Part shown: piece after piece, positions 5,724 to 62,952 of the stretch
Layout of the letters: each line of letters begins with the position of its first letter
How positions within the stretch are numbered: position 1 is the first letter of the stretch
Origin: an uncultured Acidobacteriota bacterium
GTDB taxonomy: Bacteria > Acidobacteriota > Thermoanaerobaculia > UBA5066 > Gp7-AA6
Assembly (NCBI GenBank): GCA_963742245.1
Contig: CAVULG010000006.1
Coordinates: 36,962 to 100,961, forward strand
Reading direction: 5' to 3'
Length of the DNA stretch: 64,000 nucleotides
Program-made: the position numbers and the translations under genes
Notes under the pieces: generated by a model
What the model was told of the DNA's origin: nothing
What the model saw: the letters and a program-made list of their open reading frames with translations, nothing else
Database searches by the model: none

Positions 5724-5807
5724 GTCCGCCTTTCGAGTCGAGGGCACGGGAGTCGCGGCAAAGGATATTCCACGACTGCTCGAGGATGCGCCAGCGGGCG
5801 CGAAGGG

Positions 5808-5813
5808 TAGAAT
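5808..5813 (+). promoter_or_regulatory. candidate -10 box TAGAAT upstream of kinase 1
   Basis: TAGAAT lies in a GC-rich background 14 nt upstream of the ATG at 5828. The same hexamer recurs before many genes in this window. Confidence 0.5.
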
Positions 5814-5827
5814 CCGCACATTGCCCG

Positions 5828-8506: not shown

Positions 8507-8525
8507 GAGAAACGGCGCGCCGTCG

Positions 8526-8531
8526 TAGAAT
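8526..8531 (+). promoter_or_regulatory. candidate -10 box TAGAAT upstream of kinase 2
   Basis: TAGAAT lies 9 nt upstream of the TTG start at 8541. Confidence 0.45.
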
Positions 8532-8540
8532 CCTCCCGAT

Positions 8541-11200: not shown

Positions 11201-13775
11201 CTCTGGAGCGCGGGACGAAGCTCGGCCCTTACGAGATCGTCGCGCCGATCGGCGCCGGCGGGATGGGCGAGGTTTACCGCGCACGGGACGAACGGCTCGA
11301 GCGCGACGTCGCCATGAAGGTGCTGCCGGCGACCTACTCGCCGGATGCGGAGCGGCTGCGGCGCTTCGAGCAGGAGGCGCGGGCGGCCTCCGCCCTGAAC
11401 CATCCCAACATCACGTCGGTCTACGATCTCGGGCTCGCACGACGGGTCGCCCTACATCGTGACGGAATTGCTCGAAGGCGAGACGCTGCGCGGCCGGCTC
11501 TCGGGCGGGCGCGCTGCTCGGTGCGCAAGGCGATCGGACTACGCGATCCAGATCGGCCGACGGGTCTCGCCGCGGCCCACGAGAAGGGGATCGTGCACCG
11601 GGACCTCAAGCCCGAGAACCTGTTCGTCACGAATGACGGGCGCGTCAAGATTCTCGACTTCGGCCTGGCGAAGCTGACGCAGGCCGACGGCGCGATGAGC
11701 GCCGCAGACGAACCTGCCCACGGCCGAGGGCACGCGAGCCCGGCGTCGTGCATGGGCACGCTCGGCTACATGTCGCCCGAGCAGGTGCGAGGGCAAGCCG
11801 GCGGACGCGCGCTCGGACATCTTCTCGTTCGGCGCGGTCCTCTACGAGATGCTCTCGGGCGCACGCGCGTTCAACCGGGACACGGCGGCCGAGACGATGT
11901 CGGCGATCATGCGCGAAGAGCCGCCGGACCTGTCGGCGACCAACAGGAACGTCCAGCCGGGCGCTCGAGCGGGTGGTGCGGCACTGCCTGGAGAAGAACC
12001 CCGAGGAGCGATTCCACTCGGCGCACGACCTGGCGTTCGACCTGGAGGCGCTGTCGGGAACGTCGGCCTCCGCCATCACGGCGCGTCCGGCCGCCGCTTC
12101 GCGCTTCCGTGCTCTCCCGCTCATCGCCGGAGCGCTGGCCGCGATCGCGCTGCTCGCCGCCGGCTACTTCTTTGGCAAGTCGAAGGGTGTCTCGGAGCCG
12201 CCGACGTTCAAGCAGCTGACGTTTCGCCGCGGAGCGATCTGGAGCGCCCGCTTCGGCTCCGACGGCAAGACGATCCTGACGACCGCCGCCTGGGACGGCA
12301 AGCCCGCCGAGATTTACGTCAGCCGTCCGGAATCCCCGGAGTCGCAGCCCTTCGGAATCGGCGACGCGGACGTCGCCGCGGTCTCGAGCACCGGCGAGAT
12401 CGCGGTCATTCTCAAGGCCGACTGGAACACCGCGTTCACGCGCCAGGGGACGCTGGCGCGCGTCGGCGCCACCGGGGGCGCTCCGCGCGAGCTGCTGGAG
12501 AAAGTCGAGGCCGTGGACTGGAGTCCCGACGGCAAGGACTTCCTGGTCGTCCGGTCCGACCAGGGCCAGAGCCGGCTCGAGTACCCGGCCGGAAAGGTCC
12601 TCTACGAGACCCGCGGCTGGATCGGGAACCCGCGGTTCTCTCGCGGCGGCGACCGCATCGCGTTCCTCGACCATCCGGCCATCAACGACGACGGCGGAAA
12701 GGTCGCGATCGTCGACCTCGCCGGGAAGAAAACCACGATCTCCCCCGTCTTCGCGACATCCTCGGGCCTCGCGTGGTCGCCCGACGGCTCGGAGGTCTGG
12801 TACACGGCCGCGGAGGTCGGCGGCAACCGCACCCTCCACTCCTCGACGCCTTCGGGACGGACGCGCATCATCGCGCGCGTCGCCGGCACGCTCACCCTGT
12901 ACGACGTGTCGGCGGACGGCCGCGTCCTGATCTCGCACGACGCGCAGCAGCAGGGGCTCGTCGCGCTCGGTCCTGGCGCGAGCCGGGAGGTCGATCTGTC
13001 CTGGCTCGACTGGAGCCTGCTGAGCGGTCTCTCGGCCGACGGCCAGACGGTCATCTTCACGGAGACGGGAGAAGGGGGAGGCCGCGGCTACTCGGTGTAC
13101 TTGCGCCGCCTCGACGGGTCGCCGGCCGTTCGGCTGGGCCAGGGCAGCGCTCAGTCGCTTTCCCCGGACGGGAAGCGCGTGCTGGCGTTCACCAAGTCGG
13201 GCGAAGCGCCCGAAATGGTGATCTATCCGACCGGAGCGGGCGAGCCGACGACGATTCCCGCAGGCGGGCTCGTTCTCCGCAACGCGCGGTGGATGCCCGA
13301 CGGGACGCGAATCCTGGCGGTCGCCTCCGAAGGCGACAAGCCCCTGCGCACGTGGCTCTTCGACACGCAGGGTGGCAAGCCCCGTGCGATCACGCCGGAG
13401 GGCTCTCGAGGGATCGGCCTCTCGCCGGACGGCCGGCGTTTCGTCGGGCGCACGCCGGAGAATCCGGCCGTCATCTTCTCGATCGACGGCGGCGAGCCGA
13501 CTCCCATCGTCGGTCTCGACGGATCGGATCAGGTGGCGGGATGGGCGCCCGATGGCCGCCTCTACGTCCGCCAGGGCGGCCCGTCGGCGGTCCCGGTGCC
13601 GGTCGTCCTCCACGACCCGGCGACCGGGAAGCAGGAGGCCTGGCGCACCTTCGTTCCCGCCGACGCGACCGGCGTCAACAACATCGTCACGATGCGGATC
13701 GCGCCCAACGGCGCCTACGCGTACAGCTACTACCGCCAGCTCTCGACGCTGTTTCTCGTCGAAGGGGTCCGATGA
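11197..13775 (+). pseudogene. Ser/Thr kinase - TM - PD40 beta-propeller protein; kinase domain carries multiple 1-nt indels, propeller part intact
   Basis: The GTG start overlaps the kinase-2 stop (GTGA). The kinase domain (11197..~11960) switches frame at least 6 times relative to kinase 2, with almost unchanged residues after correction. From [17 protein letters not shown] to ...[15 protein letters not shown] it is one uninterrupted frame (ORF 11748..13775). Confidence 0.7.
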
Positions 13776-16361
13776 CGCTGGCTGCCGGAACGAAGCTCGG
13801 TCCCTACGAGGTCCTCGCGCCGATCGGGGCGGGCGGCATGGGCGAGGTCTATCGCGCGCGGGATCCGCGACTGACGCGCGACGTGGCGATCAAGGTGCTG
13901 CCGGCGACGTTCTCGCAGGACCCGGATCGTTTGAAGCGGTTCGAGGCGCGAGGCGCGCGCGGCGGGAGTCCTGAACCATCCGAACATCACGGCGGTCTAC
14001 GACTTCGGGACGCACGACAACGCGCCGTACATCGTGACCGAGCTGCTGGAGGGCGAGACGCTGCGCAGCCGGCTCGGACCGGGCGCGATCTCGCCGCGCA
14101 AGGCGATCGACTACGCGGTGCAGATCGCGAAGGGGCTCGCGGCGGCGCACGAGAAGGGGATCGTCCACCGGGACCTGAAACCCGAGAACGTCTTTCTGAC
14201 GAAGGATGGGCGCGTCAAGATTCTCGACTTCGGCCTCGCGAAGCTCAAGCTCGACGGCGCCGAGAGCGGCGAGACGGACGCGGGGACGGTTTCCGGCGGG
14301 ACGCAGCCCGGTGTGGTGCTCGGGACGATGGGCTACATGGCGCCCGAGCAGGTGCGCGGGAAGGTCGCCGACAAGCGCAGCGACCTCTTCTCGTTCGGGA
14401 CGATCCTGTACGAGATGCTGTCGGGCCAGCGGGCATTCCGCGGGGACACCGCCGCCGACACGATCACGGCGATCCTGTCGAAGGAGCCGCCGGACCTTTC
14501 CCAGACGAACAGGGACATTCCGCCGGGCCTCGACCGGATCGTGCGGCACTGCCTCGAGAAGAACCCCGAGGAACGGTTCGAGTCGGCGCGCGACGTCGCC
14601 TTCGACCTCGACGCACTCTCGAGCGTCTCCACGCCGACGGGCGTGACGTCGATCCCGGCGCCTGCGAAACGCGCGCGGTGGATCGGTCCGGCGCTCATCG
14701 CGGCGGCGATCGCGCTCGCCGCGGGCCTGGCGGCGGGCTACCGCTACGGTAAGAAGGCCGGCTTCGTTCCGCCTCCGGCTTTCCAGCAGCTCACGTTCCG
14801 GCGCGGCGAGGTCTATGCGGCGCGCTTCGCTCCGGACGGCCAGACGGTCATCTACGCGGCGGCCTGGGACGGGCGGCCGGTCGAGCTCTTCGCGACGCGG
14901 ACGGACCGTCCCGAGTCGCGCGTCTTCGGCCTCGTCGGCGCGGATCTCCTCTCGATCTCGCACCAGGGCGAGATGGCCGTCTCTCTCGATCGCCACAACT
15001 TCTCGGCCTTTCTGCGCAGCGGAACGCTGGCGGAGATCGGAGTCAGCGGAGGCGTGGCGCCCCGTGCGATCGCCGACGACGTGCAGTGGGCCGACTGGGC
15101 TCCGGGCGGCAAGGAGCTCGCGATCGTGCGCGAGGTGAACCAGCAGAGCCGGCTCGAATATCCGATCGGAAAGACGCTCTTCGAGACTGCGGGCTGGATC
15201 AGTCATGCGCGCGTCTCGCCCGACGGGAAGCACGTCGCGTTCATGGAGCATCCGGTGCGCGGCGACGACGGCGGGTTCGTCGCCGTGGTGGACCGGGAAG
15301 GCAAGAAGCGGACGCTGACGGAACGCTACGCTTCCGAATGGGGCCTCGCCTGGACAGCGAGAGGCGACGAGATCTGGCTCACGGCCGCGAAGGTCGGCGC
15401 GAACCGCGCGCTGCACGGCGTTTCGCTGTCCGGCGCGGAGCGCATGCTGGCGCGCGTGACGCAGAGCCTGACCCTCCAGGATATTTCCGCGGACGGGCGG
15501 GCCCTCGTGGCGCACGACTCGATCCGCATCGGCATCATGGCGGGCGCCGAAGGCCAGGCGCGGGAACGTGAGCTCGCCTGGCTCGACTGGTCGTCGCTCT
15601 TCGATCTCTCGAGCGACGGCAAGACGATCCTTTTCTCCGAGACCGGCGAAGGATCGGGTCCGGCGTACTCGACGTTCATCCGAACGATCGACGGGGCTCC
15701 TCCCGTGCGCATCGGCGAAGGCGGCGGACAGGCGCTCTCGCCCGACGGACGGTGGGCAGCCGTGCAGGGCACGACGGAGGGGAAGCGCGGCGTCCTGCTC
15801 TACCCGACGGGTTCCGGCGAGACGATCGTTCTCAAGCTCGGCAATCTCGAGTATCAGGGGTCCGGAACGTTCACCCCGGACGGGAAGCGCTTCGTGTTCA
15901 GCGCCAACGAGCCCGGCCGCGGGTCGCGCATCTACTCCATCGACATTCCCGATGGGACGCCCAGGGCGGTGTCGCCCGAGGGCTATCGGACGTTCTCGGG
16001 CGGCGTTTCGCCCGACGGGAAGGGCGTCCTCGCCGCCGGGCCCGACCGAAAGCGCTACTTCTACCCGCTCGCGGGAGGCGAGCCGACGGCGGTCCCGGGA
16101 CTTGCGGCCGACGAGGGACCGGCCGGCTGGACCGACGACGGACGATTCCTGTACGTCTCACGGCGGCGCGACCTTCCGGGCCGCGTCTTTCGCCTCGAGC
16201 TCGCCACGGGAAAGAGAGAGCTCGCGCGCGAGGTGATGCCCGCCGACGGCTCGGGCATCGTGGACATCGCACCCATCCTCATCACCCCGGACGGGAAGTC
16301 GTATGTGTACGGATTCCAACGGACACTCTCTGATCTGTACATACTCGACGGGGTCAAATGA
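13772..16361 (+). pseudogene. Ser/Thr kinase - TM - PD40 beta-propeller protein; single frameshift near 13950 as assembled
   Basis: The ATG overlaps the kinase-3 stop (ATGA). [31 protein letters not shown]...RFEA, then a 1-nt insertion relative to kinase 5 (cgaggcgcgcgcggcgggagtc versus gaagcgcgggcggcgggggtg). The rest is intact in ORF 14034..16361. Confidence 0.8.
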
Positions 16362-16547
16362 GCCGTCGCTACGCGCCGCGCTCCGGGTCTGCGCCTGCGG
16401 CGCACCGGCCGTCGGCTCGCGCGGATGCGCGCTCGACCGCCGGCTTGACCCTGCGCTCCGCGCTTCGCTCCCGCGGCGCGAACCTCCTCCCTCCCTTCGG
16501 TCGGGAGACTATTCGCGCCGCGAACCGATCGGGCAGGGCGGCCTGAC

Positions 16548-19129
16548 GTGACTCTCGCCGCCGGAACGAAGCTCGGCCCGTACGAGATCCTCGCGCCCAT
16601 CGGCGCGGGTGGGATGGGCGAGGTCTACCGGGCGCGGGATCCGCGGCTGACGCGGGACGTCGCGATCAAGGTGCTGCCGGCGACGTTCTCGCAGGATCCG
16701 GACCGCCTCAAGCGCTTCGAGGCGGAAGCGCGGGCGGCGGGGGTGCTGAACCACCCGAACATCACGGCGGTCTACGACTTCGGGACGCATGACAACGCGC
16801 CGTACATCGTCACCGAGCTGCTCGAGGGCGAGACGCTGCGCAGCCGCCTGGGGCCCGGCGCCATTTCGCCGCGCAAGTCCATCGACTACGCGGTGCAGAT
16901 CGCGAAGGGGCTCGCCGCCGCGCACGAGAAGGGGATCGTCCACCGGGACCTGAAGCCCGAGAACGTGTTCCTGACGAAGGACGGGCGGGTCAAGATCCTG
17001 GACTTCGGCCTGGCGAAGCTCAAAACCGAGGGCGGGGAGGGCGGCCAGACCGAGGTGGGCACGGTCTCCGGAGGGACGCAGCCGGGCGTCGTCCTCGGAA
17101 CGATGGGCTACATGTCGCCCGAGCAGGTACGCGGGAAGGCGGCCGACAAGCGATCGGACCTCTTCTCGTTCGGGACGATCCTGTACGAGATGCTCTCGGG
17201 CCAACGCGCGTTCCGCGGCGACACGGCAGCGGACACGATTACGGCGATCCTGACGAAGGAGCCGCCGGATCTCTCGCAGACGAACCAGGACATCCATCCG
17301 GGGCTCGATCGCATCGTGCGGCACTGCCTCGAGAAGAACCCGGAGGAGCGCTTCGAGTCCGCGCGCGACCTCGCGTTCGACCTCGAGGCGCTGTCCGGCG
17401 TTTCCGTCACCTCGACGACCGGGATCAAGCCTCTCCCGGCGCTGACGCGCCGCCGCTTCCTGCCGATCGTGGCCGCCGGCCTCGGCGGCCTCGCCGTGGG
17501 CGCTGCGGGCGGCCTCTACGCGGGACGCAGGCTCTTCGAGCGGGGCAACGCGACCTTTCGGCAACTCACGTTCCGCAACGGACTCATGCAGGCCGCACGG
17601 TTCGGCCCCGACGGGCAGTCGATTTACTACGGCGCGGCCTGGGAAGGGCAGCGTCTCGAGATCTACCAGACGCGCCTCGACAGCCCCGACTCCCGGCTGT
17701 TCGGGCTTCCGGGCGCCGCGGTCCTGTCGATCTCTTCGGCGGGCGAGATGGCCGTTGGCCTGAACAGCCGCTCCACCGGAGGCTTCATCCGCACCGGGAC
17801 GCTCGCGCGTATCGGGATCACGGGCGGAGGGGCGCCCCGCGAGCTCGCGAGCGACATTCAGGGCGCGGACTGGTCCGCGGACGGCCAGACCCTCGCGATC
17901 ACGCGCGACCACGGCGGCAAGACCGACCTCGAGTACCCGCTCGGCAAGCCGATCTACTCGGTGCCCGGATGGCTGAGCCATCCCCGGATCGCCCCCGACG
18001 GAAAATCGATCGCCGTGCTCCATCACCCTGTCCGCGGCGACGACGGCGGGTACGTCGAGGTCGTGGATCTCGCGGGCAAGCCCACGGTCCTCACCAAGCC
18101 GTACGCGAGCATCGGCGGGCTCGCGTGGCGGCCCGACGGCCGGGAGATCTGGTTCGCCGGCGCCCGCATCGGATTCAACCGGTACCTCAACGCCGTGTCG
18201 ACCGGAGGGCGCACGCGCAGTCTCGCCGAAGCCACGGGCGGCCTCACGGTCGAAGACATCTCCAAAGAGGGACGCACGCTCGTCGTGCAGGACAAGGCCC
18301 GGCAGGGGATGCTCGGGCTCGCTCCCGGCGCCACGAAGGAGATCGAGATGTCCTGGCTCGACTGGGGCCTGCCGGCCGACATCTCCAATGACGGCCGGCT
18401 CCTGCTCTTCGACGAAAGCGGCGAAGGCGGCGGGTCGGGCTATTCCGTCTACGTGCGCAAGCTCGACGGCTCTCCGGCCGTCCGCCTGGGAGAAGGCTCG
18501 GCGCAGTTCCTTTCGCCGGACGCGTCGCAGGCCGGGGCGGTTCTCCAGCGCGAGGGCCGTGGCGTGATCCGGATCTATCCGACGGGGATCGGGGAGCCGA
18601 CGACGCTCGAGATCCCGGAGATCTCCGTCGACCAGTTCCAGTGGACCGACGACGGAAAGTCGCTGATCATCAGCGGGACCGAGCCCGGCCGCGGCCACCG
18701 CCTGTATCGTCCGTGACTTGGTTTCCGGAAAGCCCCGTGCGTTTTCTCCCGAGGGCTATCGGATCGCCGGAAGCCAGACCTATCCCGGCCGCGCGGTGCT
18801 CGCGTCCGGCCCGGACCGGAAGCGCTACCTCTACTCACTGGATGGCGGCGAGCCGACGGCCCTGCCGTTCGAGGCCACCGAACGCGTCGCGGGATGGAGC
18901 GCCGACGGGAAGTCCGCCTACATGCAGCCGATCTCGACGCTTCCCGCGACGATCACGGTCGTTGAGCTGGCATCGGGAAATCGGGACCCCTGGAGGAGCC
19001 TTGATGCCGACCGACGCGTCCGGGGTGACCACGATCGGCGGTGTGCGGGTCGCTCGTGGCGGCATCGCGTACGTGTATTCCTTCGTCCGCAACCTCGCCG
19101 ATCTCTACGTCGTCGAAGGCTTGAAGTGA
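16548..19129 (+). pseudogene. Ser/Thr kinase - TM - PD40 beta-propeller protein; two or more frameshifts in the last ~420 nt as assembled
   Basis: GTG start. Intact to ~18710 (ORF 16548..18716). Homology to kinase 4 continues in frame 1 (VSGKPRAFSPEGYRI...GGEPTALP...) and then in frame 2 from ~19000 (MPTDASGVTTIGG...YVYSFVRNLADLYVVEGLK*). Confidence 0.75.
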
Positions 19130-20821: not shown

Positions 20822-20910
<89 letters not shown>

Positions 20911-22096: not shown

Positions 22097-22227
22097 CCGG
22101 CGGCCGAAGATGAGTTCGGGCCCTGTGCGACGGAAGTCTCCGAACCTCGTCAGGCCCGGAAGGGAGCAGCGATCAGGAGGCGCCCCCGTGCGCCGCAGGT
22201 CAACCTGAGCTCATCTTCGGCCGCCGG
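22097..22227 (+). ncRNA. ffs: signal recognition particle RNA (small bacterial 4.5S type)
   Basis: Conserved domain IV sequence GTCAGGCCCGGAAGGGAGCAGC. An 18-bp perfect terminal helix (ccggcggccgaagatgag / ctcatcttcggccgccgg). Classic position immediately upstream of dnaX. Confidence 0.85.
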
Positions 22228-26388: not shown

Positions 26389-26450
26389 CGTAGGGGCGGC
26401 CCTTGCGGCCGCCCTCCCGTGGAAGGGCGGGGACAAGCCCCGCCCCTACG
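26389..26450. repeat. inverted pair of ~29-nt REP-like palindromic units
   Basis: gtaggggcggcccttgcggccgccctcc / ggaagggcggggacaagccccgcccctac. Each unit is itself a hairpin. The same units recur at 41759-41829. Confidence 0.75.
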
Positions 26451-32464: not shown

Positions 32465-33028
32465 TTGAAGTCGGCCGGCCGCCTCGACACCCTCGTCCTG
32501 ACGCTGCACCTGGCGGCGCTCTCGCTGGCCCTGGCGCCCCCGATCTTCTTCGGGGCCGTCATCGCCCCGACGGTCTTCCGGGTGCTGCCGACCCGCGATC
32601 TGGCCGGAGCGCTCCAGAGCCCCATCCTCTCCAAGCTGTGCCTGCTCGCGGAAGTGAGCTTCGCGGTCCTGTTCGTGACCGCCTGGTGGCTGACGCGGCG
32701 GGACGCTCCCCGTTCGGCGCGCGCCTTCCTGACGCGGCTCCCGGTCCTCGGCTTCTTCGCCGCGCTCGTGATCCGCCAGCTCCTCATCCCTCCGATCGAC
32801 CGCATCCGCGAAGAGGCGCCGGGTCTCATCGACAGCCTCGCCGCCTCGGATCCCTCGAGGATCCTCCTCGACCGCTATCACCGCCTGGCGACCGGATTCT
32901 TCTCGCTGGAGATCGCGGCCGCGGCGCTGATCCTCGTCGCCACCGCGGGTCTTCTCACCGCGCGCCGCTCCGCGCCCCCGCCGCCGGAGAAGCCGAAGGT
33001 GGCTGCAAAGGTCCTCGACCTCGAGTAG
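32465..33028 (+). CDS. DUF4149 domain membrane protein
   Basis: Four TM helices. LHLAALSLALAPPIFFGAVIAPTVFRVLP is a typical DUF4149 N-terminus. Confidence 0.65.
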   Translation: MKSAGRLDTLVLTLHLAALSLALAPPIFFGAVIAPTVFRVLPTRDLAGALQSPILSKLCLLAEVSFAVLFVTAWWLTRRDAPRSARAFLTRLPVLGFFAALVIRQLLIPPIDRIREEAPGLIDSLAASDPSRILLDRYHRLATGFFSLEIAAAALILVATAGLLTARRSAPPPPEKPKVAAKVLDLE

Positions 33029-33047
33029 CCGCGGCGTCGCGTAATCG

Positions 33048-33201
33048 GGCCTGCGGCGCCTCCCTGCGTCGGCACGCGGCGGCCTTTCTCGAAACAAGCG
33101 ACCGGCCGCCGCTGACTGCGTCGGCCCACGCGCCGCGGTGCGCGAGGCGGACTTCTGTGTGGGCCGCCGCAGACCACCTCCTCCGGGAGGCGCCGCAGGC
33201 C
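33048..33201. repeat. solo, diverged copy of the multi-hairpin element that is tandemly repeated at 36289-37336
   Basis: A perfect 17-bp outer stem (ggcctgcggcgcctccc / gggaggcgccgcaggcc) encloses hairpins gcggcggcc/ggccgccgc and cggccca/tgggccg. It fills the convergent spacer between 33028 and 33206. Confidence 0.8.
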
Positions 33202-33205
33202 AGGT

Positions 33206-34105
33206 TCAGTGTTTTTTCGCCAGCTCCGCCGCGCGTTTCCCGGGTCCCGCGGTTTTATCGCCCTCCCAGCGGTAGAACCCCTCGCCGGATTTCCGACCGG
33301 TGTGTCCCTCGGCGACGAGCTCGCGCAGGATCTCCGGCGGCGTGAACCGGTCGGAGGGCAGCTCGGCGGCGAGCGTCTCGGCGATCGCGAGGCGCACGTC
33401 GAGGCCGACGAGGTCGGTCGTCTTCAGGGGGCCCATCCGGTGGCCGTAGCCGAGCTCGAGGGCGCGATCGATGTCCTCGGCGCTCGCGACGCCCTCCTCG
33501 ACCATCCGCATGGCCTCGAGCCCCAGGGCGACCCCGAGGCGCGAGGTCGCGAAACCCGGAGAGTCGCGCACCCGCACCGCTTCCTTGCCGAGCGACCGGA
33601 CGAGCTCGAGGGCGCGGGCTTCCGTCTCCGGTGAGGTCTCCTTGCCGCGGACGATCTCGACGAGCGGCATCGCGGCGACCGGGTTGAAGAAGTGGATGCC
33701 GATGACCCGGTCCCGCCGGCCGGTCGACCGGGCGATCCGGGTGATCGAGAGAGAAGAGGTGTTCGAAGCGAAGATGGTCCGCTCCGGGCACAGATCGTCG
33801 AGCTCCGAGAAGAGCATCGTCTTCAGCTCCAGGGCCTCCGGAACCGCCTCGATCGCGAGGTCGACCTCGGTGGCGTCCTTGAGTCTCTGAACGATCTTGA
33901 GCCGGTGCCGCGCCGCCTCGGCGGCCTCGGTCGTGAGCTTGCCCTTCGCGACGGCCCGCGCCCAGGATCCCTCCACGTGCCCGCGCACGGCCCGCTGGGC
34001 GTCGGGATCCGCGTCGAACACCCGCGTGTCGTGCCCGGCGAGCGCGCACGCCCCCGCGATCCCGCGGCCCATGGTGCCCGCGCCGATCACGAGAACGGAG
34101 GACAT
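33206..34105 (-). CDS. hbd: 3-hydroxyacyl-CoA / 3-hydroxybutyryl-CoA dehydrogenase
   Basis: MSSVLVIGAGTMGRGIA Rossmann motif. FASNTSSLSITRIA, IGIHFFNPV and GFATSRL motifs. Confidence 0.88.
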   Translation of the reverse strand: MSSVLVIGAGTMGRGIAGACALAGHDTRVFDADPDAQRAVRGHVEGSWARAVAKGKLTTEAAEAARHRLKIVQRLKDATEVDLAIEAVPEALELKTMLFSELDDLCPERTIFASNTSSLSITRIARSTGRRDRVIGIHFFNPVAAMPLVEIVRGKETSPETEARALELVRSLGKEAVRVRDSPGFATSRLGVALGLEAMRMVEEGVASAEDIDRALELGYGHRMGPLKTTDLVGLDVRLAIAETLAAELPSDRFTPPEILRELVAEGHTGRKSGEGFYRWEGDKTAGPGKRAAELAKKH

Positions 34106-34111
34106 GGCCGG

Positions 34112-34117
34112 ATTATC
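34112..34117 (-). promoter_or_regulatory. possible -10 box GATAAT 6 nt before the hbd ATG
   Basis: The minus strand reads gataat-ccggcc-ATG. It overlaps the stop of the upstream gene. Confidence 0.3.
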
Positions 34118-34960
34118 TACCCGATGACGCGCTCGGCGTTGTCCCAGAGGATCTTCTGCTTCGCCGCTTCCGAGAGCGGCAGCGCGCGGAACTCCTCGAG
34201 GTTCTGCTTCATCGAGGGCACGCCGGGGCTGGGATAGTCCGTTCCCCACAGGCAGCGGTCCGCGAGCTCCTCCAGGCGCGGCAGGTACTCGAGGAGCTTC
34301 TTCGGCGGGATGCCGGAGAGATCGATGTGGACGTTGGGATGGCGGCGCACGAGGAAGACCGCCGTCTCCATGTAGAGCGGGCGGCCCGCGTGGGCGAGGA
34401 GGATCTTGAGCTTCGGGAAATCGACCGCGACGTCGTCGACCGGCATCGGGTCGGCGAAGCGGTTGCGCGCGCCCGGAAAGATCGAGGTTCCCGTGTGGAT
34501 CGTGACGGGGCGTCCCCGCTCCTCGGCGGCGCGGTAGACCTCCGCGAGGCCCGGCGCGTCCGACGAGGTAGGCGTTGGCGGCGTAGAGCTGGTGGGGAGG
34601 ATGGATCTTGAGGAGCCGGATGCCCGCGTCGAAGAGGCGCCGCGTGTCGCCGCCGGGGTCCGTCGTGTGGAGCGGATGGACCGACCCGACCGCGTAAAGG
34701 CGCTCCTCGTGCCCGCGCACGTAGCGCAGGATCCACTCGTTGACCGAGGGCGGAAAACCCATGACCGCGGGCGCGACGTAGTTGATGAGAGCCGCCTTCT
34801 CGACGCCCTCGCGGTCCATCAGGTCGAGGAGGGCGCGCGGATCCGCGAGGGCTTCCTGGATCTGTCCGAGGTCCTTGCGGCCCGCCGCCATCCGGGCGCG
34901 CACGTCGGGCCGCATTTCCTCCCAGGGTTGAACGTGCACGTGACAGTCGAAGACCCGCAT
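34117..34960 (-). pseudogene. amidohydrolase-2 family metal-dependent hydrolase; one frameshift near 34565 as assembled
   Basis: MRVFDCHVHVQPWE... is in one frame. ...DAPGLAEVYRAAEERGRPVTIHTGTS...LLAHAGRPLYMETAV...WGTDYP is in another frame. Confidence 0.7.
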
Positions 34961-35025
34961 CGGCGCGCTAGCGTATGGCACGCGGGCCGCGGCCGACTCT
35001 TTTCGATGGTAGATTCCTCCAAACG

Positions 35026-36250
35026 ATGCGCCCCGCCAGAAAAGCGGTCCTCCTCGGCGCTTGCGCCCTGGCCGCGGGCCTGCGCGGCGGCCTCGCGGTT
35101 CCCTCGGCCTTTGCCTCGGCCTCTGCCTCCGCGAGCGCCCAGACGCCGCGCGCGACTCCGACGTCCGCCCGACGGCCTCCGACCGCCGCTCCGACGGCGA
35201 TCCCCACGCCCGTACCACCCGAGCGGGAGGGGCGCCAGAACCGGGGCGCCGCACCGGCGCCGGATCGCCGCGGGGCCCGATACGAGAACCGGAGCGTCCG
35301 CTACTCGAAGGTCACGCGCGTGGAGGAAGTCGACCTCGACCGCGACGGCGTCTTCGAAGCCCTGGTCGAGGGCGTCGGCACGGTCCGCAGCCTGCCGCCG
35401 GACATCCCGGCCGTCGGCTTCGTGTCGCGCGCGCGTCTGCCGTTCGAGAACCCCATCCTCTCCGTCTTCAAGCGCGCGCCCGGCGGCGATTGGGATCTGC
35501 TGCTGGCCGCCCATCTTCCGCAACAGTGCACGCAGAGCGCCGACACGGCCCGCTGCGACGAGCTGCTGGCGTTTCGCAGCGTCGACTTCCGCTTCGACGA
35601 CCGGCCGCAGGTGGCGCTCCAGATCGTCCGGGCGGGCGAGCCGCGCCTCTCCGAGACGTACATGTACCGGCTGGACAAGGGGCGTTTCGACACCACGTTC
35701 TCCGCGGTGCTCCCGCGGGCGGCGGTGGAGGTCGACTTCGGGCCCGCGGGCATCACGCGCCGCATCGCGGTCGACACGTTCATCAACAGTGCGCTGCCGC
35801 CGCGCTATCGCAGCTTCACGCTGACGACGAGCTACGTGTTCGGCGAGCGGCGCTTCCGGATCGTTTCCGAGAGCGTCGAGCCGGAGTGGGCCGACCGCGG
35901 CGTCCTCGACCTCTCGTACTGGGGGCTCGTCCATCAGCCGACGTTCTCGGAAGACCTCGTGAAGCTGAAGGAGCGGCAGGCGAAAGTTTCCGGGGGAGCC
36001 CTGGGCGCTCGACCCGGTGGAGCTCGTCAAAAGGAAGTATCCGGACGCGAAGGGCACGCGGGTCTTCGTCAAGCAGCCGGGGCTGGCCGTCGTGACGTTC
36101 GAGCGCGCGGGATGCATCGCGCACCTCGTCGTGTTCCAGCCGCTGCGGGAGTGGGACGGGGAGAAGAGTCTCTGGGATTTCGGGACGATCCGGTCGACGG
36201 AGAGTTCCGACTACGAGTGTCTGCCGGAGCCTCCGGTTTCGAAGCCGTAG
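35026..36250 (+). pseudogene. hypothetical secreted protein; one frameshift near 35995 (G-run) as assembled
   Basis: Signal-like MRPARKAVLLGACALAAGL. The frame changes at tccgggggagcc. The tail ...PWALDPVELVKRKYPDAKGTRVFVKQPG...ECLPEPPVSKP* is in ORF 36017..36250. Confidence 0.5.
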
Positions 36251-36288
36251 AGAGAGTCCTCGTTCGCCGATCCTTGGCGATCCGAGCT

Positions 36289-37336
36289 GCATCCCGGCCT
36301 GCGGCGTCTCCCTCGTCGGCACGCGGCGGCCGGCCGTTGAGAGGGAGTTCCGGCCGCCGCTGACTGCGTCGGCCCATTTGCCGCGCTGCGAGAGTCGGAG
36401 TGTGGTGTGGGCCGCCGCAGATCACCTCCTCCGGGAGACGCCTCCGGCCGGGTGGCGGATTTCGCGGGGATGCGCTTAGCGGATCGTTGCGGCTGTGCGG
36501 GTCGCATCCCGGCCTGCGGCGTCTTCCTCGTCGGCACGCGGCGGCCGGCCGTTGAGAGGGAGTTCCGGCCGCCGCTGACTGCGTCGGCCCATTTGCCGCG
36601 CTGCGAGAGTCGGAGCGTGGTGTGGGCCGCCGCAGATCACCTCCTCCGGGAGACGCCTCCGGCCGGGTGGCGGATGTTGCGGGGCTGCGCTTAGCGGGTT
36701 CGTTGCGGCTGTGCGGGCTGCATCCCGGCCTGCGGCGTCTTCCTCGTCGGCACGCGGCGGCCGGCCGTTGAGAGGGAATTCCGGCCGCCGCTGACTGCGT
36801 CGGCCCATTTGCCGCGCTGCGAAAGTCGGAGCGTGGTGTGGGCCGCCGCAGATCACCTCCTCCGGGAGACGCCTCCGGCCGGGTGGCGGATGTTGCGGGG
36901 CTGCGCTTAGCGGGTTCGTTGCGGCTGTGCGGGCTGCATCCCGGCCTGCGGCGTCTCCCTCGTCGGCACGCGGCGGCCGGCCGTTGAGAGGGAATTCCGG
37001 CCGCCGCTGACTGCGTCGGCCCATTTGCCGCGCTGCGAGAGTCGGAGCGTGGTGTGGGCCGCCGCAGATCACCTCCTCCGGGAGACGCCTCCGGCCGGGT
37101 CGCGGATTTCGTGGGGATGCGCTTAGCGGATCGTTGCGGCTGTGCGAGTCGCATCCCGGCCTGCGGCGTCTCCCTCGTCGGCACGCGGCGGCCGGCCGTT
37201 GAGAGGGAGTTCCGGCCGCCGCTGACTGCGTCGGCCCATTTGCCGCGCTGCGAGAGTCGGAGCGTGGTGTGGGCCGCCGCAGATCACCTCCTCCGGGAGA
37301 CGCCTCCGGCCGGGTGCTGATGTCGCGGGGCTGCGC
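36289..37336. repeat. five head-to-tail copies (period 215/216 nt) of a GC-rich multi-hairpin element plus a symporter-gene-tail relic
   Basis: Unit starts are at 36289, 36504, 36720, 36936 and 37151. The units differ by a handful of substitutions. Confidence 0.9.
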
Positions 37337-38719
37337 TTAGCGGGGTGCTGCGGCTGGCGCGCGGCGCGCGGCGTAGGCGGCGGCGAGCACCAGCGCGTTG
37401 ACGGCCGTGCCGACGATTACGGGATCGTGGCCGCCGACGGCGGCGGGGACGAAGCGGCCGATCGCGGCCGTGGCGCCGCCGAGGATCATGGCGGCGATGG
37501 CGCCGGATCGGGGGATGCGCGTGGGGCCCGGGAGCAGGGCCGCCAGGACGGGAAGGATGAGGCCGGCGGCGAAAATGGAGTAGCCGAGGCGGAGGGTGGC
37601 GAGGACGTCGCGGTTGAGCAGCAGGGCGGTCGCGAGGCCGAGGGCGCCGTAGACGGGCGCGAGGAAGCGCGCGGCGGAGAGGGTCATCGGCCGGCCGAGG
37701 ATGGCGGGGGCGAGATCGCGGGAGGTGACGGCCGTCGCCGAGAGGAGCACGACGTCGGCCGAGGTCTGCATGGTCGCGACGAGGGCGACGAGGACGAGGG
37801 CGGCGAGCGCCGGCGGGGCGAATCCGAGAACGGCCGCGGGCAGCGCCTCGGCGGCGGGCACCGGCGGGAGGGCCTTGCGCGCCGCGAGGGCGATCGCCGC
37901 CACGGAAAGGCCGAAGAGGATCTTGGAGACCGAGGCGAGGAGGGCCGAGGTGCGCGCCGTCGACTCGTCGCGGCAGGAGAAGAGCTTCAGGTAGACGTCG
38001 CTGCCCACGAGGTGCGGCAGGCCGATCAGGACGAGCATCGCGAGGATGTCCGTGAAGTGAAACGTCGGCGAGGTCGGAAAGCTCCAGACCTCGGCGGGAA
38101 GCGCCGACAGGCCGCCGGAGCCCCGCAGAGCGCACACGAGGGCGATGCCGGGGATGCCGACGAGCATGAGGCCGTACTGGAGCAGGTCCGTCCGCACGAC
38201 GGCGAACTGGCCGCCGAGCGCGGTGTAGGTCACGAAGACCGCCGTCGCGAGGACGATGGCCCCGCGCGGCTCGAGGCCGAGCGCGGCCGTGAGGACGACC
38301 TGCGTGGTCTCGGTCAGGAGCGCGAACCACACGACCTCCGAGGCGAGCACGAGGGCCGCGGCGACACGCCGGGCGGCCGTGCCGTAGTAACGGCCGACGA
38401 TCTCGGGCAGCGTCACCGCGCCCTCGCGGCGGACGCGGCGCGCGAGAAAGAACCCGAGGGCCGCCAGGCCCAGGGCGCCCGCGAGGTCGAGCCACAGACC
38501 CGACACGCCGTGCGTGTAGACGAGCGCCGCGAGCGCGATCGTCGTCGAGCCGCCGGTCGTCAGCGAGGCGAGGCCCGTGAAGCCCCAGAAGACGCTGAGC
38601 GAGCGGTCGGCCAGGAAGAAGGACGCCTCGTCGCGGCCGGCGCGGCGCCTCCAGGCGAGGCCGATCGCGAGGACGGCCGCGAGGTACACGCCGAGGGCGG
38701 CGGCCGCGAGCGCGTGCAC
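37337..38719 (-). CDS. sodium:solute symporter (SSS) family transporter
   Basis: ~460 aa with more than 12 TM helices and an FFLADRSLSVFWGFTGLASLTTGGSTT motif. The GTG start at 38719 is inferred, as there is no ATG near TM1. Confidence 0.75.
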   Translation of the reverse strand: MHALAAAALGVYLAAVLAIGLAWRRRAGRDEASFFLADRSLSVFWGFTGLASLTTGGSTTIALAALVYTHGVSGLWLDLAGALGLAALGFFLARRVRREGAVTLPEIVGRYYGTAARRVAAALVLASEVVWFALLTETTQVVLTAALGLEPRGAIVLATAVFVTYTALGGQFAVVRTDLLQYGLMLVGIPGIALVCALRGSGGLSALPAEVWSFPTSPTFHFTDILAMLVLIGLPHLVGSDVYLKLFSCRDESTARTSALLASVSKILFGLSVAAIALAARKALPPVPAAEALPAAVLGFAPPALAALVLVALVATMQTSADVVLLSATAVTSRDLAPAILGRPMTLSAARFLAPVYGALGLATALLLNRDVLATLRLGYSIFAAGLILPVLAALLPGPTRIPRSGAIAAMILGGATAAIGRFVPAAVGGHDPVIVGTAVNALVLAAAYAARRAPAAAPR

Positions 38720-41758: not shown

Positions 41759-41829
41759 TGAAGAGGGCGGCCGCAAGGGCCGCCCCTACGAGGGTTCGGC
41801 GTAGGGGCGGGGCTCGTCCCCGCCCTTCC
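41759..41829. repeat. second locus of the REP-like palindromic unit pair
   Basis: gagggcggccgcaagggccgcccctac is the reverse complement of the 26390 unit. It is followed by gtaggggcggggctcgtccccgcccttcc. A partial third unit is at 41740-41758. Confidence 0.75.
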
Positions 41830-59597: not shown

Positions 59598-60713
59598 ATG
59601 AGACGACTCGGTGCGTTCGCCGCCGTTTCGCTCCTTGTAGGCGTCGGTGTCGGTGTCGGTGCCGCCGCGTCCCCCGCTTGCGCCCAGACCCTCCCGGATC
59701 TCTTCCAGAAAGCCAAGGCGCAGGTCCGCGGGCAGTCCTGGACGCAGGCGCTGAAGACCCTTGCGACTCTCGAAGCCGAGGCGGACAAGCCCGGCCACGA
59801 AAGCGCCCGCGAGCAGCTTGCGGCGCCGATGGCGTTCTACCGCGCGGTTTGCGACTCGAACCTCGGCAACGCCGACGCGGCCCGGCGGGACTTCGCGGTG
59901 TACCTCGCGGAGTACCCGACCGCCTCGATGGACCCGTCGATGTACTCGAAGAAGGCGATCGCGGCATTTGAGGCTGCGCGACGCGATGGCGCGACGAGCG
60001 TTGCGCCGGGCGAGGACGGCCCCTCCGTCTTCCTCGCGTTCCAGGAATTCAGGATGCGGCCCAATTCGAGCGAGCCGGTCGACGCGGACTGGGCCCACGG
60101 GCCCGTGAAATGGATCATGACGGTCGAAGAGCGGCGCCGCTGGGAGGACCTCACGCCAGGCGGGGAGTGGGCGGAGTTCGTGGACCGCTTCTGGGAGGCC
60201 CGCAATCCGAATCCCGGCAACCCGGACAACGTCGCCCGCACCACCTTCGAGCGCCGCGTCGCCTTCGCCGACACGCATTTCGTCGAGGCCGAGAGGATCC
60301 GCGGCAGCCTGACCGAGCGCGGGATGGTCTTCGTGCTCCTCGGGCCGCCGACCTACGTCGGCAGGAAGCCGATCCGGTCCGGCGAGGACGTGAACGAGGC
60401 GGCCGGCATGTCGACCGTGAGCACGCGCGGCGAGAACGTCGCGCAGCGTGCCCTGGCGGCGGCCGGCGAGCCGGCGGGCTCGACCGGGGCCTCGGCCGCG
60501 GACGCCGTTTTCGGTCCGGGCGCCCGGGTCCTGGACACGAGCCCCAGCTGGCGCGAGGTCTGGCACTACCGCCGGGAGCTTCTGCCGAAGGCGCTGCGGT
60601 ACCACCAGGTCGACCTCGAGTTCATCACCCGCCGGGGGGCCGGGAGCGCCGTCCTCCAGCGCGACCCGCCCGCCCTCGCGACCCTCGACGCGGCCCGCGC
60701 CCGCGCGCGCTAG
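59598..60713 (+). CDS. secreted GWxTD-type domain protein, paralog 1
   Basis: 371 aa. Signal peptide, TPR-like N-terminal region, and FWEARNPNPGNPDN...FERRVAFADTHF...GSLTERGMVFVLLGPP core. Confidence 0.7.
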   Translation: MRRLGAFAAVSLLVGVGVGVGAAASPACAQTLPDLFQKAKAQVRGQSWTQALKTLATLEAEADKPGHESAREQLAAPMAFYRAVCDSNLGNADAARRDFAVYLAEYPTASMDPSMYSKKAIAAFEAARRDGATSVAPGEDGPSVFLAFQEFRMRPNSSEPVDADWAHGPVKWIMTVEERRRWEDLTPGGEWAEFVDRFWEARNPNPGNPDNVARTTFERRVAFADTHFVEAERIRGSLTERGMVFVLLGPPTYVGRKPIRSGEDVNEAAGMSTVSTRGENVAQRALAAAGEPAGSTGASAADAVFGPGARVLDTSPSWREVWHYRRELLPKALRYHQVDLEFITRRGAGSAVLQRDPPALATLDAARARAR

Positions 60714-60716
60714 AAT
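60711..60716 (+). promoter_or_regulatory. -10 box TAGAAT upstream of paralog 2 (shares the TAG stop of paralog 1)
   Basis: 17 nt before the ATG at 60734. Confidence 0.5.
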
Positions 60717-60733
60717 CCCGCCCGGGGGCGCTC

Positions 60734-61768
60734 ATGCGTCGACTCGCCGCGTTTCTGGCCGGTTCTCTCCTTCTCGCCGCAGCCTCCGCGGGCGCGCAGG
60801 CCCAGACCCTCCCGGAGCTCTTTCAGCAGGCCAAGGCCCAGGTGAAAAGCGAGTCCTGGAAGGAGGCCCTGAAGACGCTCGACGCCCTCGAGGCCGAGGC
60901 GAACCGTCCCGGCAACGACGAGGCGAAGAAGCAGCTCGCCGCGCCGATGGCCTTCTACCGCGGCGTCTGCGAAGCCAACCTCGACATGGCCGAGAAGGCG
61001 CAGGCCGACTTCGCGACTTTCCAGACGGAGAAGCCGGGCTCGACGATCGACACGGCGATGTACTCGAAGAAGGCGGTCCTGGCTTTCGAGGCCGCCGCGC
61101 GCAGGGGAGCGGCGCCGGCCGGCTCGCTCTCGCTCTTCCAGAGGTTCGAGCAGTTCCCGTCCCCGCCCGACATGGGCGAGAAGCCCGACGAGCGGTGGGC
61201 CGACGGACCGGTGAAGTGGATCCTGACGGGCGAGGAAAAGGGGGCCTGGGGCGGGCTGGCGGGCGCAGGCGAGCGCGCCGAGTTCGTCGAGCAGTTCTGG
61301 GAGCGGCGCAACCCGAAGCCGGGATCCGACGACAACACCGCGCGCACCGGCTTCGATCGGCGGGTCGCCTTCGCGGACGCCTATTTCGTCCTCGACGAGA
61401 AGCAGCGCGGCAGCCTGACGGACACGGGGATGGTGTTCATCCTGCTCGGACCGCCGAGCTGGACCGGCCGCAAGCCGATCCTGGCGGGCGAGGACCGCTC
61501 CGTCTCGGACGGCATGTCCCTCGACGAGCAATGGTTCATGGCCTCTCGGAATTCGGTTCACATCGATGGCGCTCAGGCCCCGGAAGCGTCCGGCGCCTTT
61601 CGCGAGGTCTGGCGCTACCGGCGGGAAGCCCTGCCGAAAGGAGTCTCTGCGAACCAGGTGAACGTCGTTTTCGTCACCAAGAAGGGTTACGGGCGATCGG
61701 TCCTCATGCGCGATCCCGCGACCGTCGCCGCGCTCGATGCGGCACGCGCAGGAAGAACCAAGAATTGA
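60734..61768 (+). CDS. secreted GWxTD-type domain protein, paralog 2
   Basis: 344 aa. MRRLAAFLAGSLLLAAASAGAQA signal peptide. FWERRNPKPGSDDN...RRVAFADAYF...GSLTDTGMVFILLGPP core. Confidence 0.7.
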   Translation: MRRLAAFLAGSLLLAAASAGAQAQTLPELFQQAKAQVKSESWKEALKTLDALEAEANRPGNDEAKKQLAAPMAFYRGVCEANLDMAEKAQADFATFQTEKPGSTIDTAMYSKKAVLAFEAAARRGAAPAGSLSLFQRFEQFPSPPDMGEKPDERWADGPVKWILTGEEKGAWGGLAGAGERAEFVEQFWERRNPKPGSDDNTARTGFDRRVAFADAYFVLDEKQRGSLTDTGMVFILLGPPSWTGRKPILAGEDRSVSDGMSLDEQWFMASRNSVHIDGAQAPEASGAFREVWRYRREALPKGVSANQVNVVFVTKKGYGRSVLMRDPATVAALDAARAGRTKN

Positions 61769-61784
61769 CCGAGTCGGCCGCGAC

Positions 61785-61790
61785 TAGAAT
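61785..61790 (+). promoter_or_regulatory. -10 box TAGAAT upstream of paralog 3
   Basis: 19 nt before the GTG at 61810. Confidence 0.45.
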
Positions 61791-61809
61791 CACCGCCGGA
61801 GGGCGTGGC

Positions 61810-62901
61810 GTGCAACGACCCGGTATCAGTCTCGCCGTTCTTCTCGTTTCGGCGAGCCTCGCCGCGCAGTCCCTCCCGGAGCTCTTCCACAAGGCCAAGG
61901 CCCAGGTGAAGGGCGAGTCCTGGGCGGCAGCGTTGAAGACCCTCGACGCGCTCGAAGCCGAGGCGAACCGTCCCGGCAACGACGACGAAAGGCAGCAGCT
62001 CGCCGCGCCGCTCGCGTTCTACCGCGGCGTCTGCGACGCGAACCTCGGCAACGCGGAAAGGGCCCAGGCAGACTTCGAGACCTTCCTCGCGCTCAAGCCC
62101 TCCGCCACGATGGACCCGTCGATGTACTCGAAGAAAGCCCTCGCGGCGTTCGAAGCCGCGCGCAAGACCGCCGCGCCGGATGTTCCGGCCGAAGACCGGG
62201 AAGACCGGCACCCGATGTTCCAGGTCTTCCAGGAATTCAAGCTCCCGGCGAACTCGACCGAGCAGATCAACGCGGTCTGGGCGGACGGACCGGTGCAATG
62301 GATCATGACGCCGGAAGAGCGGCGCGGCTGGGACGAGCTCGCCGCCGGCTCCGAGTGGCAGGACTTCGTCGATCGCTTCTGGGAGGCGCGCAACCCGCGC
62401 CCGGGAAATCCCGACAACGTCTTCAAGACGACCTTCGAGCGCCGCGTCGCGTTCGCCGACGCGCACTTCGTCCAGGTCGAGGGAAGGCGCGGCAGCCTGA
62501 CGGATCGCGGGATGGTCTTCGTGCTTCTGGGGCCGCCGTCCTACATCGGCCGCCGGCCCATCCGGGCGGGCGAGGACTCGACGACCGAAGGCGGCCTGTC
62601 GGCCGTCGGTTCGCGGGCCTCGATTTACGCGCAGCGCATGATGACCTCCGCCGGGGAGCCCTCCGGCTCTTCGAGCACCGCGGCCACCGACGCGGTCTTC
62701 GGCCCGGGCTGGAAGGCCGCGGACTCGAGCTCCGACTGGCGCGAGATCTGGCACTACCCGAGCGAGGTCCTGCCCAGGGGGGTCTCGTACCAGAAGCTCG
62801 ACGTCGACTTCGTGACGAAGAAGGGCTACGGCAAGTACGTCATCCAGCGAGATCACAAGACCGTCGCCGCCCTCGAAGCCGCCCGGGCTCGCGCCAACTA
62901 G
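61810..62901 (+). CDS. secreted GWxTD-type domain protein, paralog 3
   Basis: 363 aa from the in-frame GTG. FWEARNPRPGNPDN...GSLTDRGMVFVLLGPP core. Confidence 0.65.
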   Translation: MQRPGISLAVLLVSASLAAQSLPELFHKAKAQVKGESWAAALKTLDALEAEANRPGNDDERQQLAAPLAFYRGVCDANLGNAERAQADFETFLALKPSATMDPSMYSKKALAAFEAARKTAAPDVPAEDREDRHPMFQVFQEFKLPANSTEQINAVWADGPVQWIMTPEERRGWDELAAGSEWQDFVDRFWEARNPRPGNPDNVFKTTFERRVAFADAHFVQVEGRRGSLTDRGMVFVLLGPPSYIGRRPIRAGEDSTTEGGLSAVGSRASIYAQRMMTSAGEPSGSSSTAATDAVFGPGWKAADSSSDWREIWHYPSEVLPRGVSYQKLDVDFVTKKGYGKYVIQRDHKTVAALEAARARAN

Positions 62902-62928
62902 CCCCGTCGCCCGCGGGCCGATCAGTCA

Positions 62929-62934
62929 TAGAAT
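62929..62934 (+). promoter_or_regulatory. -10 box TAGAAT upstream of paralog 4
   Basis: 18 nt before the ATG at 62953. Confidence 0.5.
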
Positions 62935-62952
62935 CGCGTTCGGAGGCCCGCC

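Follow-up and report, generated by a model that had tools for sequence, protein, structure and literature searches.

We examined a window of 64,000 nucleotides (64 kb; positions 36,962 to 100,961 of contig CAVULG010000006.1, GenBank assembly GCA_963742245.1) from an uncultured bacterium of the Thermoanaerobaculia (Acidobacteriota), a group known almost only from metagenome-assembled genomes (MAGs). At issue is the spacer between two convergent genes of this window, a conserved hypothetical gene and a sodium:solute symporter gene, which is filled from end to end by a tandem array of a GC-rich, hairpin-forming module. The spacer is probably the result of a fivefold tandem amplification of an orphan copy of this module, which belongs to a family whose normal form is a miniature inverted-repeat transposable element (MITE) of the IS1 type. 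If the array is an amplified piece of a selfish repeat family, then it would be an unnamed member of a familiar kind of element, not a new class of RNA. This reading draws on direct observations of family membership, of doublet and MITE organization in relatives, of insertion as compared with empty sites, of copies of a gene tail within the array, and of a fold with compensatory changes.

Tandem Repeats Finder called the array at 36286-37356, with a period of 216, 5.0 copies, 95% matches, 0% indels, and a score of 1946. A previous inspection of the letters and open reading frames (ORFs) of the window, made without database searches (the sequence-only reading), had described five head-to-tail units of ~216 bp starting at 36289, 36504, 36720, 36936, and 37151; these starts are correct, and a repeat search of the window gave start-to-start spacings of 215, 216, 216, and 215. 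Each unit is composed of a 160-nt core and a 55-56-nt linker, organized head-to-tail, and the array occupies the whole spacer between the two genes and extends ~20 nt into the symporter coding sequence. Its parts are as follows.

36283..37356, + strand: tandem array in which a 216-bp unit of core plus linker is repeated 5.0 times, from repeat finding and unit alignment
36293..36452, + strand: unit 1 core of 160 nt, a three-way junction in which P1 is the outer stem and P2 and P3 are hairpins
36508..36667, + strand: unit 2 core, with a C-to-T change in P1 that gives G-U on the + strand
36724..36883, + strand: unit 3 core, with a C-to-T change in P1 that gives G-U on the + strand
36940..37099, + strand: unit 4 core
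37155..37314, + strand: unit 5 core, separated by a spacer of 22 nt from the true symporter stop codon
36453..36507, + strand: linker 1, a decayed copy of the spacer and of the symporter gene end (stop codon and final ~20 nt), fused to ~10-16 nt from the left border of the array
36668-36723, 36884-36939, and 37100-37154, + strand: linkers 2-4, made up as linker 1
37337..37356, - strand: true 3' end of the symporter gene (stop codon and last ~6 codons), the template of the linker pseudo-tails

Overall pairwise identity among the units is 93-99%, and the variable positions are unevenly distributed. The alignment of the array has four variable columns in the 164-nt core and 17 in the linker (10 of them among units 1-4), and within units 1-4 the contrast is 4/164 variable core sites versus 10/54 variable linker sites (Fisher p = 1.9e-4). 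The substitutions are also ordered across the array, in that unit 1 resembles unit 4, unit 2 resembles unit 3, and unit 5 is distinct. A CRISPR array, made of short repeats and unique spacers, is ruled out, as had been argued from the letters, because it is the entire 216-bp unit that repeats and the linkers are copies of one another.

The linkers record how the array grew. Each is a degenerate copy of the sequence after unit 5 (22-nt spacer, stop codon, and ~20 nt of symporter coding sequence), and a 2-3-nt microhomology marks its junction with 10-16 nt of the array left border. Sequence comparison bears out the likeness to the real 3' end of the symporter gene that had been noticed earlier. 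The C-terminus of the symporter (..RRAPAAAPR) is similar to that of its orthologues (..RRRGASPAPARA); therefore, the gene tail is native, and the proposal that the array grew by duplication of “element + gene tail” stands, with a decayed ~20-nt tail copy and its stop codon in every linker. The array was formed by local tandem duplication, not by transposition. Tandem arrays of repetitive extragenic palindromic (REP) sequences and REPINs that carry flanking sequence have been documented in Pseudomonas fluorescens (PMC3116915).

The module itself is widely dispersed. Rich in GC and ~160 nt long, it has two hairpins enclosed by an inverted repeat of 17-22 bp (P1), and a strict two-motif pattern (CTCCCT..CGTCGGCACGCG, ~100 nt, CCTCCTCCGGGAG) located it at 54 loci in the genome collection, all of them in Thermoanaerobaculia/Acidobacteriota MAGs. 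A looser pattern matched at least 117 loci, of which the few outside the Acidobacteriota had no match to a family hidden Markov model (HMM) and were taken as chance. The covariance model of the family recovered 115 copies, and an nhmmer profile recovered 274 copies across 128 loci, with 100 distinct doublets among them; loci can overlap, and raw copy counts are thus upper bounds. At least 100 distinct module copies are spread over ~11 MAGs. Two module loci, the array and a solo copy, lie in the window, and their six copies match the HMM, which was made from 115 copies of relatives plus three of these six, with E = 4e-23 to 3e-16 (nhmmer); the diagnostic pattern matches them as well. Among themselves they form a separate subfamily, ~65% identical to the nearest relatives. 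We found no description of the repeat content of Thermoanaerobaculia in Rfam or in the literature searched, and the window copies are members of an undescribed, Thermoanaerobaculia-specific interspersed repeat family. What the window holds is an orphan copy from a dispersed repeat family, not an isolated novel RNA of the 3' untranslated region (UTR).

All copies are intergenic and adjoin unrelated, ordinary genes. In relatives, the spacers that hold them are convergent in 15 cases, tandem in 25, and divergent in seven, as judged with a crude custom gene caller. Genes between close copies are likewise ordinary. “Gene-less” gaps beside some copies were considered as a place for a transposase, but the genes in them are ordinary ones with frameshifts, a BNR-repeat protein and a xanthine-dehydrogenase-like protein. 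The relative orientation of adjacent copies is strict: “+ then -” occurs 113 times and “- then +” never, the two copies standing tail-to-tail with a gap of ~30 nt, and direct (+ +) neighbors are found only in the window array and among nested copies at locus L118. In relatives the module is found nearly always in such tail-to-tail doublets. Within a doublet, one half is 61-75% like the other, whereas entire doublets compared between loci reach 80-93% across 365-465 bp; therefore, the doublet is the copied unit. The window copies, single or in direct tandem, lack the partner module.

Many copies in relatives that seem to be single (L070, L092, L094, L102, L121, L145, L157, L189, and L190) are followed on the 3' side, after the usual gap, by a short conserved partner of a different kind, GGGCCGACGGGTGGCGCCGGACGGAGACCTCGCGCGCGGG; therefore, three or more types of module make up a mosaic family.

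The fold of the module is real and is kept by compensatory change. The core of unit 1 (36293-36452) folds as a three-way junction with a minimum free energy of -112.5 kcal/mol versus a shuffle mean of -83.9 (z = -6.69; 0/200 shuffles as stable), and the stems named in the sequence-only reading are present. The minus strand folds more weakly (-102.6, z = -5.3). The stems are P1 (GGCCUGCGGCGUCUCCC with GGGAGACGCCUCCGGCC), an 11-13-bp hairpin (P2), and a long hairpin (P3), and the 3x3 internal loop earlier placed in the outer stem is predicted instead as a mismatch, a G-C pair, and a second mismatch. Two conserved core motifs are unpaired, TCGTCGGCAC (36313-36322 in unit 1) and CACCTCCTCC (36423-36432). 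Four compensatory pairs were found in an independent MAFFT/RNAalifold alignment of the six window copies. In the alignment of 115 copies, which was fitted to the covariance model and in that respect favors the structure, 84% of cells pair versus 40-49% when partners are slid by 1-3 columns, double changes are seen at 49 of the 60 base pairs, and the cells with double changes number 745 versus 241 in shuffles. Conservation in the family is highest at two unpaired motifs of the junction, TCGTCGGCAC and the anti-Shine-Dalgarno-like CCTCCTCC.

The earlier suggestion that the + strand is the functional one fares less evenly. The C-to-T change in P1 of units 2 and 3 does give a G-U pair on the + strand (CG in four sequences, UG in two), all four variable core sites of the array are loop positions or G-U on that strand, and P3 has 238 G-U versus 50 A-C pairs family-wide; these lend the suggestion some support, but no such bias is present in P1 or P2. 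We also considered, and rejected, a pseudoknot in which the purine-rich loop of P2 would pair with the CCUCCUCC junction: the pairing at locus L095 (GAGUC with GACUC) is not general, and covariation is not consistent.

It is in the relatives that the frame of an IS1-type MITE can be read. Doublets with legible ends lie inside an element of ~440 bp with inverted ends GGTAGTGGGTCAGTTTG and 8-9-bp target duplications. At locus L118, for instance, one doublet is nested in half of another, with ends GGTAGTGGGTCAGTTTGC / GCAAAGTGACCCCACTAC and a 9-bp flanking duplication, TGGGCTCTC. TAGTGG-type ends are present on both sides of 15 of the 100 distinct doublets, and six of these 15 have a clear target duplication (7-9 of 9 positions). 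Apart from the one at L118, duplications match at 9/9, 8/9, 8/9, 7/9, and 7/9. The same ends also bound transposons. Locus L220 has an exact inverted GGTAGTGGGTCAGTTTG pair 3.2 kb apart with an 8/9-bp duplication, and the element encodes a 289-aa ORF that matches Pfam DDE_Tnp_IS1 at 35.5 bits (cut-off 24.1); an ORF at locus L237 belongs to the same family. About 280 chance matches are expected in the collection for a scan with 16-mer inverted ends, and only loci with two inverted exact matches were used. Ends of the form GGnnnTG are a feature of the IS1 and IS6/IS26 families (PMC6807381). Finally, MITEs of 125-150 bp in an Opitutaceae MAG and a Pyrinomonadaceae MAG have GGTAGTGGGTCAGTTTG ends and 8-9-bp duplications, and no module; 8-9-bp duplications are carried by loci L229 and L232.

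Three further observations concern these ends and elements. First, the GGTAGTGGGTCAGTTTG ends are identical to the base across distant phyla (L220 585-3790, L237 519-4111, L273 1752-5858, L229 2486-2608, and L232 2265-2414), and they bound 3-4-kb elements with an IS1-type transposase and passenger genes, which at L220 are an XRE/ImmA-like pair. Second, a subfamily in MAG bin_228 (L025, L076, L082, L085-L089, L098, and L114) has 43 + 63 nt beyond the doublet and related ends, CTAGTGGCGTGTAACA / TGTTACACGGAACTAG; no 8-9-bp duplication is visible there, and the CTAG at both ends could be part of the ends or a TA/CTAG target. Third, ~900-bp inverted repeats of nested MITE copies, 93-96% identical, at L118 1250-2150 and 6950-7810 bracket a 4.7-kb block of leuC/leuD-like, phosphoenolpyruvate-mutase-like, and isocitrate/isopropylmalate-dehydrogenase-like genes, and inversion of this block is possible.

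Comparison with orthologous sites indicates insertion of the module in the window. The features that bear on this are the two genes that flank the array and the solo copy.

35026..36250, + strand: conserved hypothetical gene, convergent with the symporter gene; compared with orthologues it is frameshifted near 36000, and on its 3' side is the array, in sense orientation
37337..38719, - strand: sodium:solute symporter gene (Pfam SSF), start codon uncertain
33048..33201, + strand: solo module copy, 78-85% identical to the array cores, with P1 a perfect 17-bp stem

The sequence-only reading had named the symporter correctly, as the Pfam SSF match confirms, and had reported a copy of the module outside the array, which does exist at 33048-33201. 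Its upstream gene at 35026-36250 is present too, although not as a single open frame, since the frame changes at 35990-36020 relative to a 385-aa orthologue. The solo copy was matched by the covariance model at 33042-33207 (138.8 bits), differs from the array cores in the sequence of its loops, and sits between the stop of a DUF4149 gene (33028, +) and the stop of a 3-hydroxyacyl-CoA dehydrogenase gene (33206, -). Both window loci lie 13-40 nt past the stop of a + strand gene, in sense orientation.

Orthologues of the symporter, with 67-85% identity, were found in 64 loci of Thermoanaerobaculia/Acidobacteriota MAGs. In five relatives the symporter gene and the orthologue of the hypothetical gene are convergent, and what separates them ranges from a 23-nt overlap to a 28-nt spacer, compared with 1086 nt in the window; therefore, the window array is an insertion that was later amplified. 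The surroundings of the solo copy are syntenic in relatives as well, and the element is absent there. Across the 64 syntenic loci (1.1 Mb), the module is present at two, as a pair in L025 and as one copy in L039, and absent from the other 62. To judge from these syntenic comparisons, both window loci are lineage-specific insertions. An empty site for the L025 doublet was not found, the neighboring gene being non-syntenic in the other loci.

Two observations on this neighborhood stand apart from the module. In the region that corresponds to 33028-33206, the relatives compared (L001, L034, L058, and L022) carry an extra gene of ~170 aa, and sometimes a second one, between the dehydrogenase and DUF4149 genes; the window, like L040, lacks them, and the solo module fills a 177-nt spacer. 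Upstream of the dehydrogenase gene, an amidohydrolase-like frame (34105-35254) looks broken, as a 682-aa ORF with a nonsense middle, and this break and the one near 36000 are either pseudogenes or indel errors of long-read assembly.

Taken together, we propose the following sequence of events. A copy of the module would have landed between the two convergent genes, or remained there after the decay of a full MITE, having lost, or never possessed, the inverted ends and the partner; without these it would presumably be unable to transpose. A 216-bp segment would then have been multiplied by unequal recombination or replication slippage, joined at the 2-3-nt microhomology. Whenever it was transcribed from the upstream + strand gene, each unit would form a very stable structure, and any effect would most likely be that of a barrier to 3' exonucleases or to convergent read-through, by analogy with REP sequences and bacterial interspersed mosaic elements (BIMEs), ERIC sequences, and Correia elements. 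A role of the array at the RNA level, as a 3'-end structure, is possible on the same analogy. The likeness to IS1-family MITEs lies in the relatives, whose doublets have GGTAGTGGGTCAGTTTG ends, 8-9-bp duplications, and nesting, with the same ends on DDE_Tnp_IS1 transposons. In contrast, the window copies have no inverted ends, target duplication, or partner, and the interior of the element consists of two branched, covarying 160-nt modules, which ordinary MITEs with GGTAGTGGGTCAGTTTG ends do not have.

Several points weigh against this proposal. Legible ends are confined to the minority of doublets counted above, and the MITE frame is therefore demonstrated for a subset and extrapolated to the rest. 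No transposase with GGTAGTGGGTCAGTTTG-type ends was found in any Thermoanaerobaculia genome, and the window-type subfamily had no exact match in the genome collection or in two metagenome scans. In the 64-kb window there is no match to GGTAGTGGGTCAGTTTG at three mismatches or fewer, an HMM of the flanks also found nothing beside the window copies, and there are no direct repeats indicative of target duplication at the borders of the array or the solo copy. Both window loci are cut almost exactly at P1 and show remnants of neither ends nor partner. That decay should have stopped at these P1 boundaries twice, independently, is not obviously expected, and the module may spread, or be retained, by some means of its own. 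Further, the contrast between core and linker suggests a constraint on the core that would be unexpected in a dead relic. Unequal crossing-over should homogenize cores and linkers alike, and the contrast therefore looks like the mark of a constrained core, or of conversion by copies that lie elsewhere in the genome. As to the proposed effect on transcripts, no consensus promoter was seen in the region, and an intrinsic terminator can be set aside in that neither the array nor the solo copy has a GC-rich hairpin followed by a U tract.

The most serious alternative is that the module is a functional structured RNA of the + strand, either a cis-acting 3'-UTR element or a small RNA, for which the MITE is only a vehicle and whose array is kept because it is useful to have several copies. 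We regard this as unlikely. In a broader form, to which we give similarly little weight, the module would be more than transposon filler: a structured nucleic acid that the host retains, that works on the sense strand where genes end, and that IS1-type MITEs have either spread or supplied for exaptation; the window copies, cut at P1, without terminal inverted repeats, and with constrained cores, would be its functional form, a three-way junction with two unpaired motifs including the anti-Shine-Dalgarno-like CCUCCUCC. It is mainly the core constraint and the trimming to P1 that keep an RNA or structured-DNA explanation in consideration at this low level. Strong covariation in all three stems, the conservation of unpaired TCGTCGGCAC and anti-Shine-Dalgarno-like CCTCCTCC, the G-U excess in P3, the placement of all four variable core sites in loops or + strand G-U pairs, the sense orientation of both window loci shortly past a + strand stop, and the co-orientation of seven of nine single copies in relatives with their neighboring genes all favor it. 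However, the last of these, obtained with the crude gene caller, is not significant, P1 and P2 have no G-U excess, and compensatory change is also expected of hairpins that are needed at the DNA level. The module is patchy, being absent from 62 of the 64 orthologous sites, and in relatives it occupies every type of intergenic context beside unrelated genes, while target duplications, inverted ends, and nesting bespeak spread as DNA. Nor is there consistent covariation for the pseudoknot or a promoter or terminator consensus. None of 4227 Rfam families matched, at gathering or at permissive thresholds, whether in the window region with E up to 10 or in five doublet loci with E up to 1, and the earlier failure to recognize a named RNA family was justified. 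The module is within the range of Rfam structured RNAs (including the Acidobacteria motifs) in size and covariation; unlike them, it has the distribution of a mobile repeat and not that of a conserved gene.

That the copy number, or the entire array, is an assembly artefact we hold to be very unlikely. There are apparent frameshifts in conserved genes of this contig, as in related long-read MAGs, and the sequence quality is therefore imperfect. However, the units differ by ordered substitutions, which would not be expected from collapse or stutter, and the last unit grades into the real gene end.

It is highly improbable that the module is a REP/REPIN-type element moved by a REP-associated tyrosine transposase (RAYT; Y1/HUH), although the resemblance is considerable. 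As in the REP, BIME, and REPIN sequences of proteobacteria, the copies are palindromic and lie outside genes, it is an inverted doublet that is copied (in relatives, not in the window), single copies appear to be remnants, the organization is mosaic, there is a tendency toward gene ends, and tandem clusters take in flanking sequence (PMC3116915; PMC3733652). A CGTC tetranucleotide before P2 also recalls the CGTC-tagged REPs (PMC3733652). Those families, however, have 8-9-bp stems starting with A-T pairs, 4-5-nt loops, and a CCA tail (PMC3733652), and P2 has none of these stem, loop, or tail features. The module is a branched structure of 160 nt with a three-way junction, four to eight times larger than a hairpin of 20-40 nt, and has no GTAG tag, and the 8-9-bp target duplications and inverted ends of the family point to a DDE transposase and not to Y1. 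A search with tblastn for RAYTs in 1.5 Mb of loci returned nothing, a weak test that used two Y1 sequences as queries. The sequence-only reading had allowed that the element might prove to be an already described REP/BIME or Rfam family; it came close, as a mobile repeat of the REP/BIME kind, yet the family itself is not a described one.

The least credible alternative is a repetitive protein-coding region, for which a period of 216 (72 codons) and long ORFs across the array on both strands (371 aa for the minus-strand ORF at 36069-37184) might be cited: the four longest ORFs over the array, two per strand, have no Pfam match, the 215 and 216 spacings shift the frame, copy lengths vary by non-multiples of three, substitutions in the family are even by codon position (941/865/994), and the only plausible frame has in-frame stops in 27 of 65 copies, all in keeping with the initial view that no coding signal was convincing. 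A small antisense ORF after GGAGGAGG..ATG was rejected as well, its codon-position bias being absent and its stops frequent.

Modular structured intergenic repeats offer a further comparison. The pneumococcal BOX element (boxA-boxB(n)-boxC), enterobacterial ERIC, and the Neisseria Correia element are short mobile repeats without coding function whose transcripts fold stably, and experiments have shown that they can alter the stability or termination of neighboring mRNAs; the internal module of BOX is tandemly repeated. There is no sequence relation to any of them, the unit amplified here includes a piece of a host gene, and effects on transcripts are here only conjectured.

The analysis defines a family, provides a usable search pattern and model for it, and ties it to IS1-type ends. 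For annotation, the warning is that “structured” spacers of 0.2-1 kb in Thermoanaerobaculia genomes would be debris of mobile elements and not new RNA genes; such spacers can also be hard to assemble. What might make the family more than junk is the covarying three-way-junction interior of the MITE, together with the conservation of orphan cores while their linkers drift.

Other repeats and RNA genes occur in the window. At ~5800-18650, five paralogues stand in tandem, each a gene of ~2.6-2.8 kb; they share blocks of 62-100% identity, and their conserved stretches read as a protein-kinase-domain-like region followed by a beta-propeller-type region, and at ~59680-64000 there are four tandem paralogues of ~1.1 kb (repeat families D3-D5, D10, and D18). 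A 30-nt GC-rich hairpin-forming sequence, GGAAGGGCGGGGACAAGCCCCGCCCCTACG, is present at 26421-26450 and, 15 kb away in the opposite orientation and 97% complementary, at 41800-41829, and could represent another small repeat, of a REP-like or terminator-like type. The window also contains a bacterial small signal recognition particle RNA at 22114-22213 (67.7 bits) and a tRNA gene at 20825-20910.

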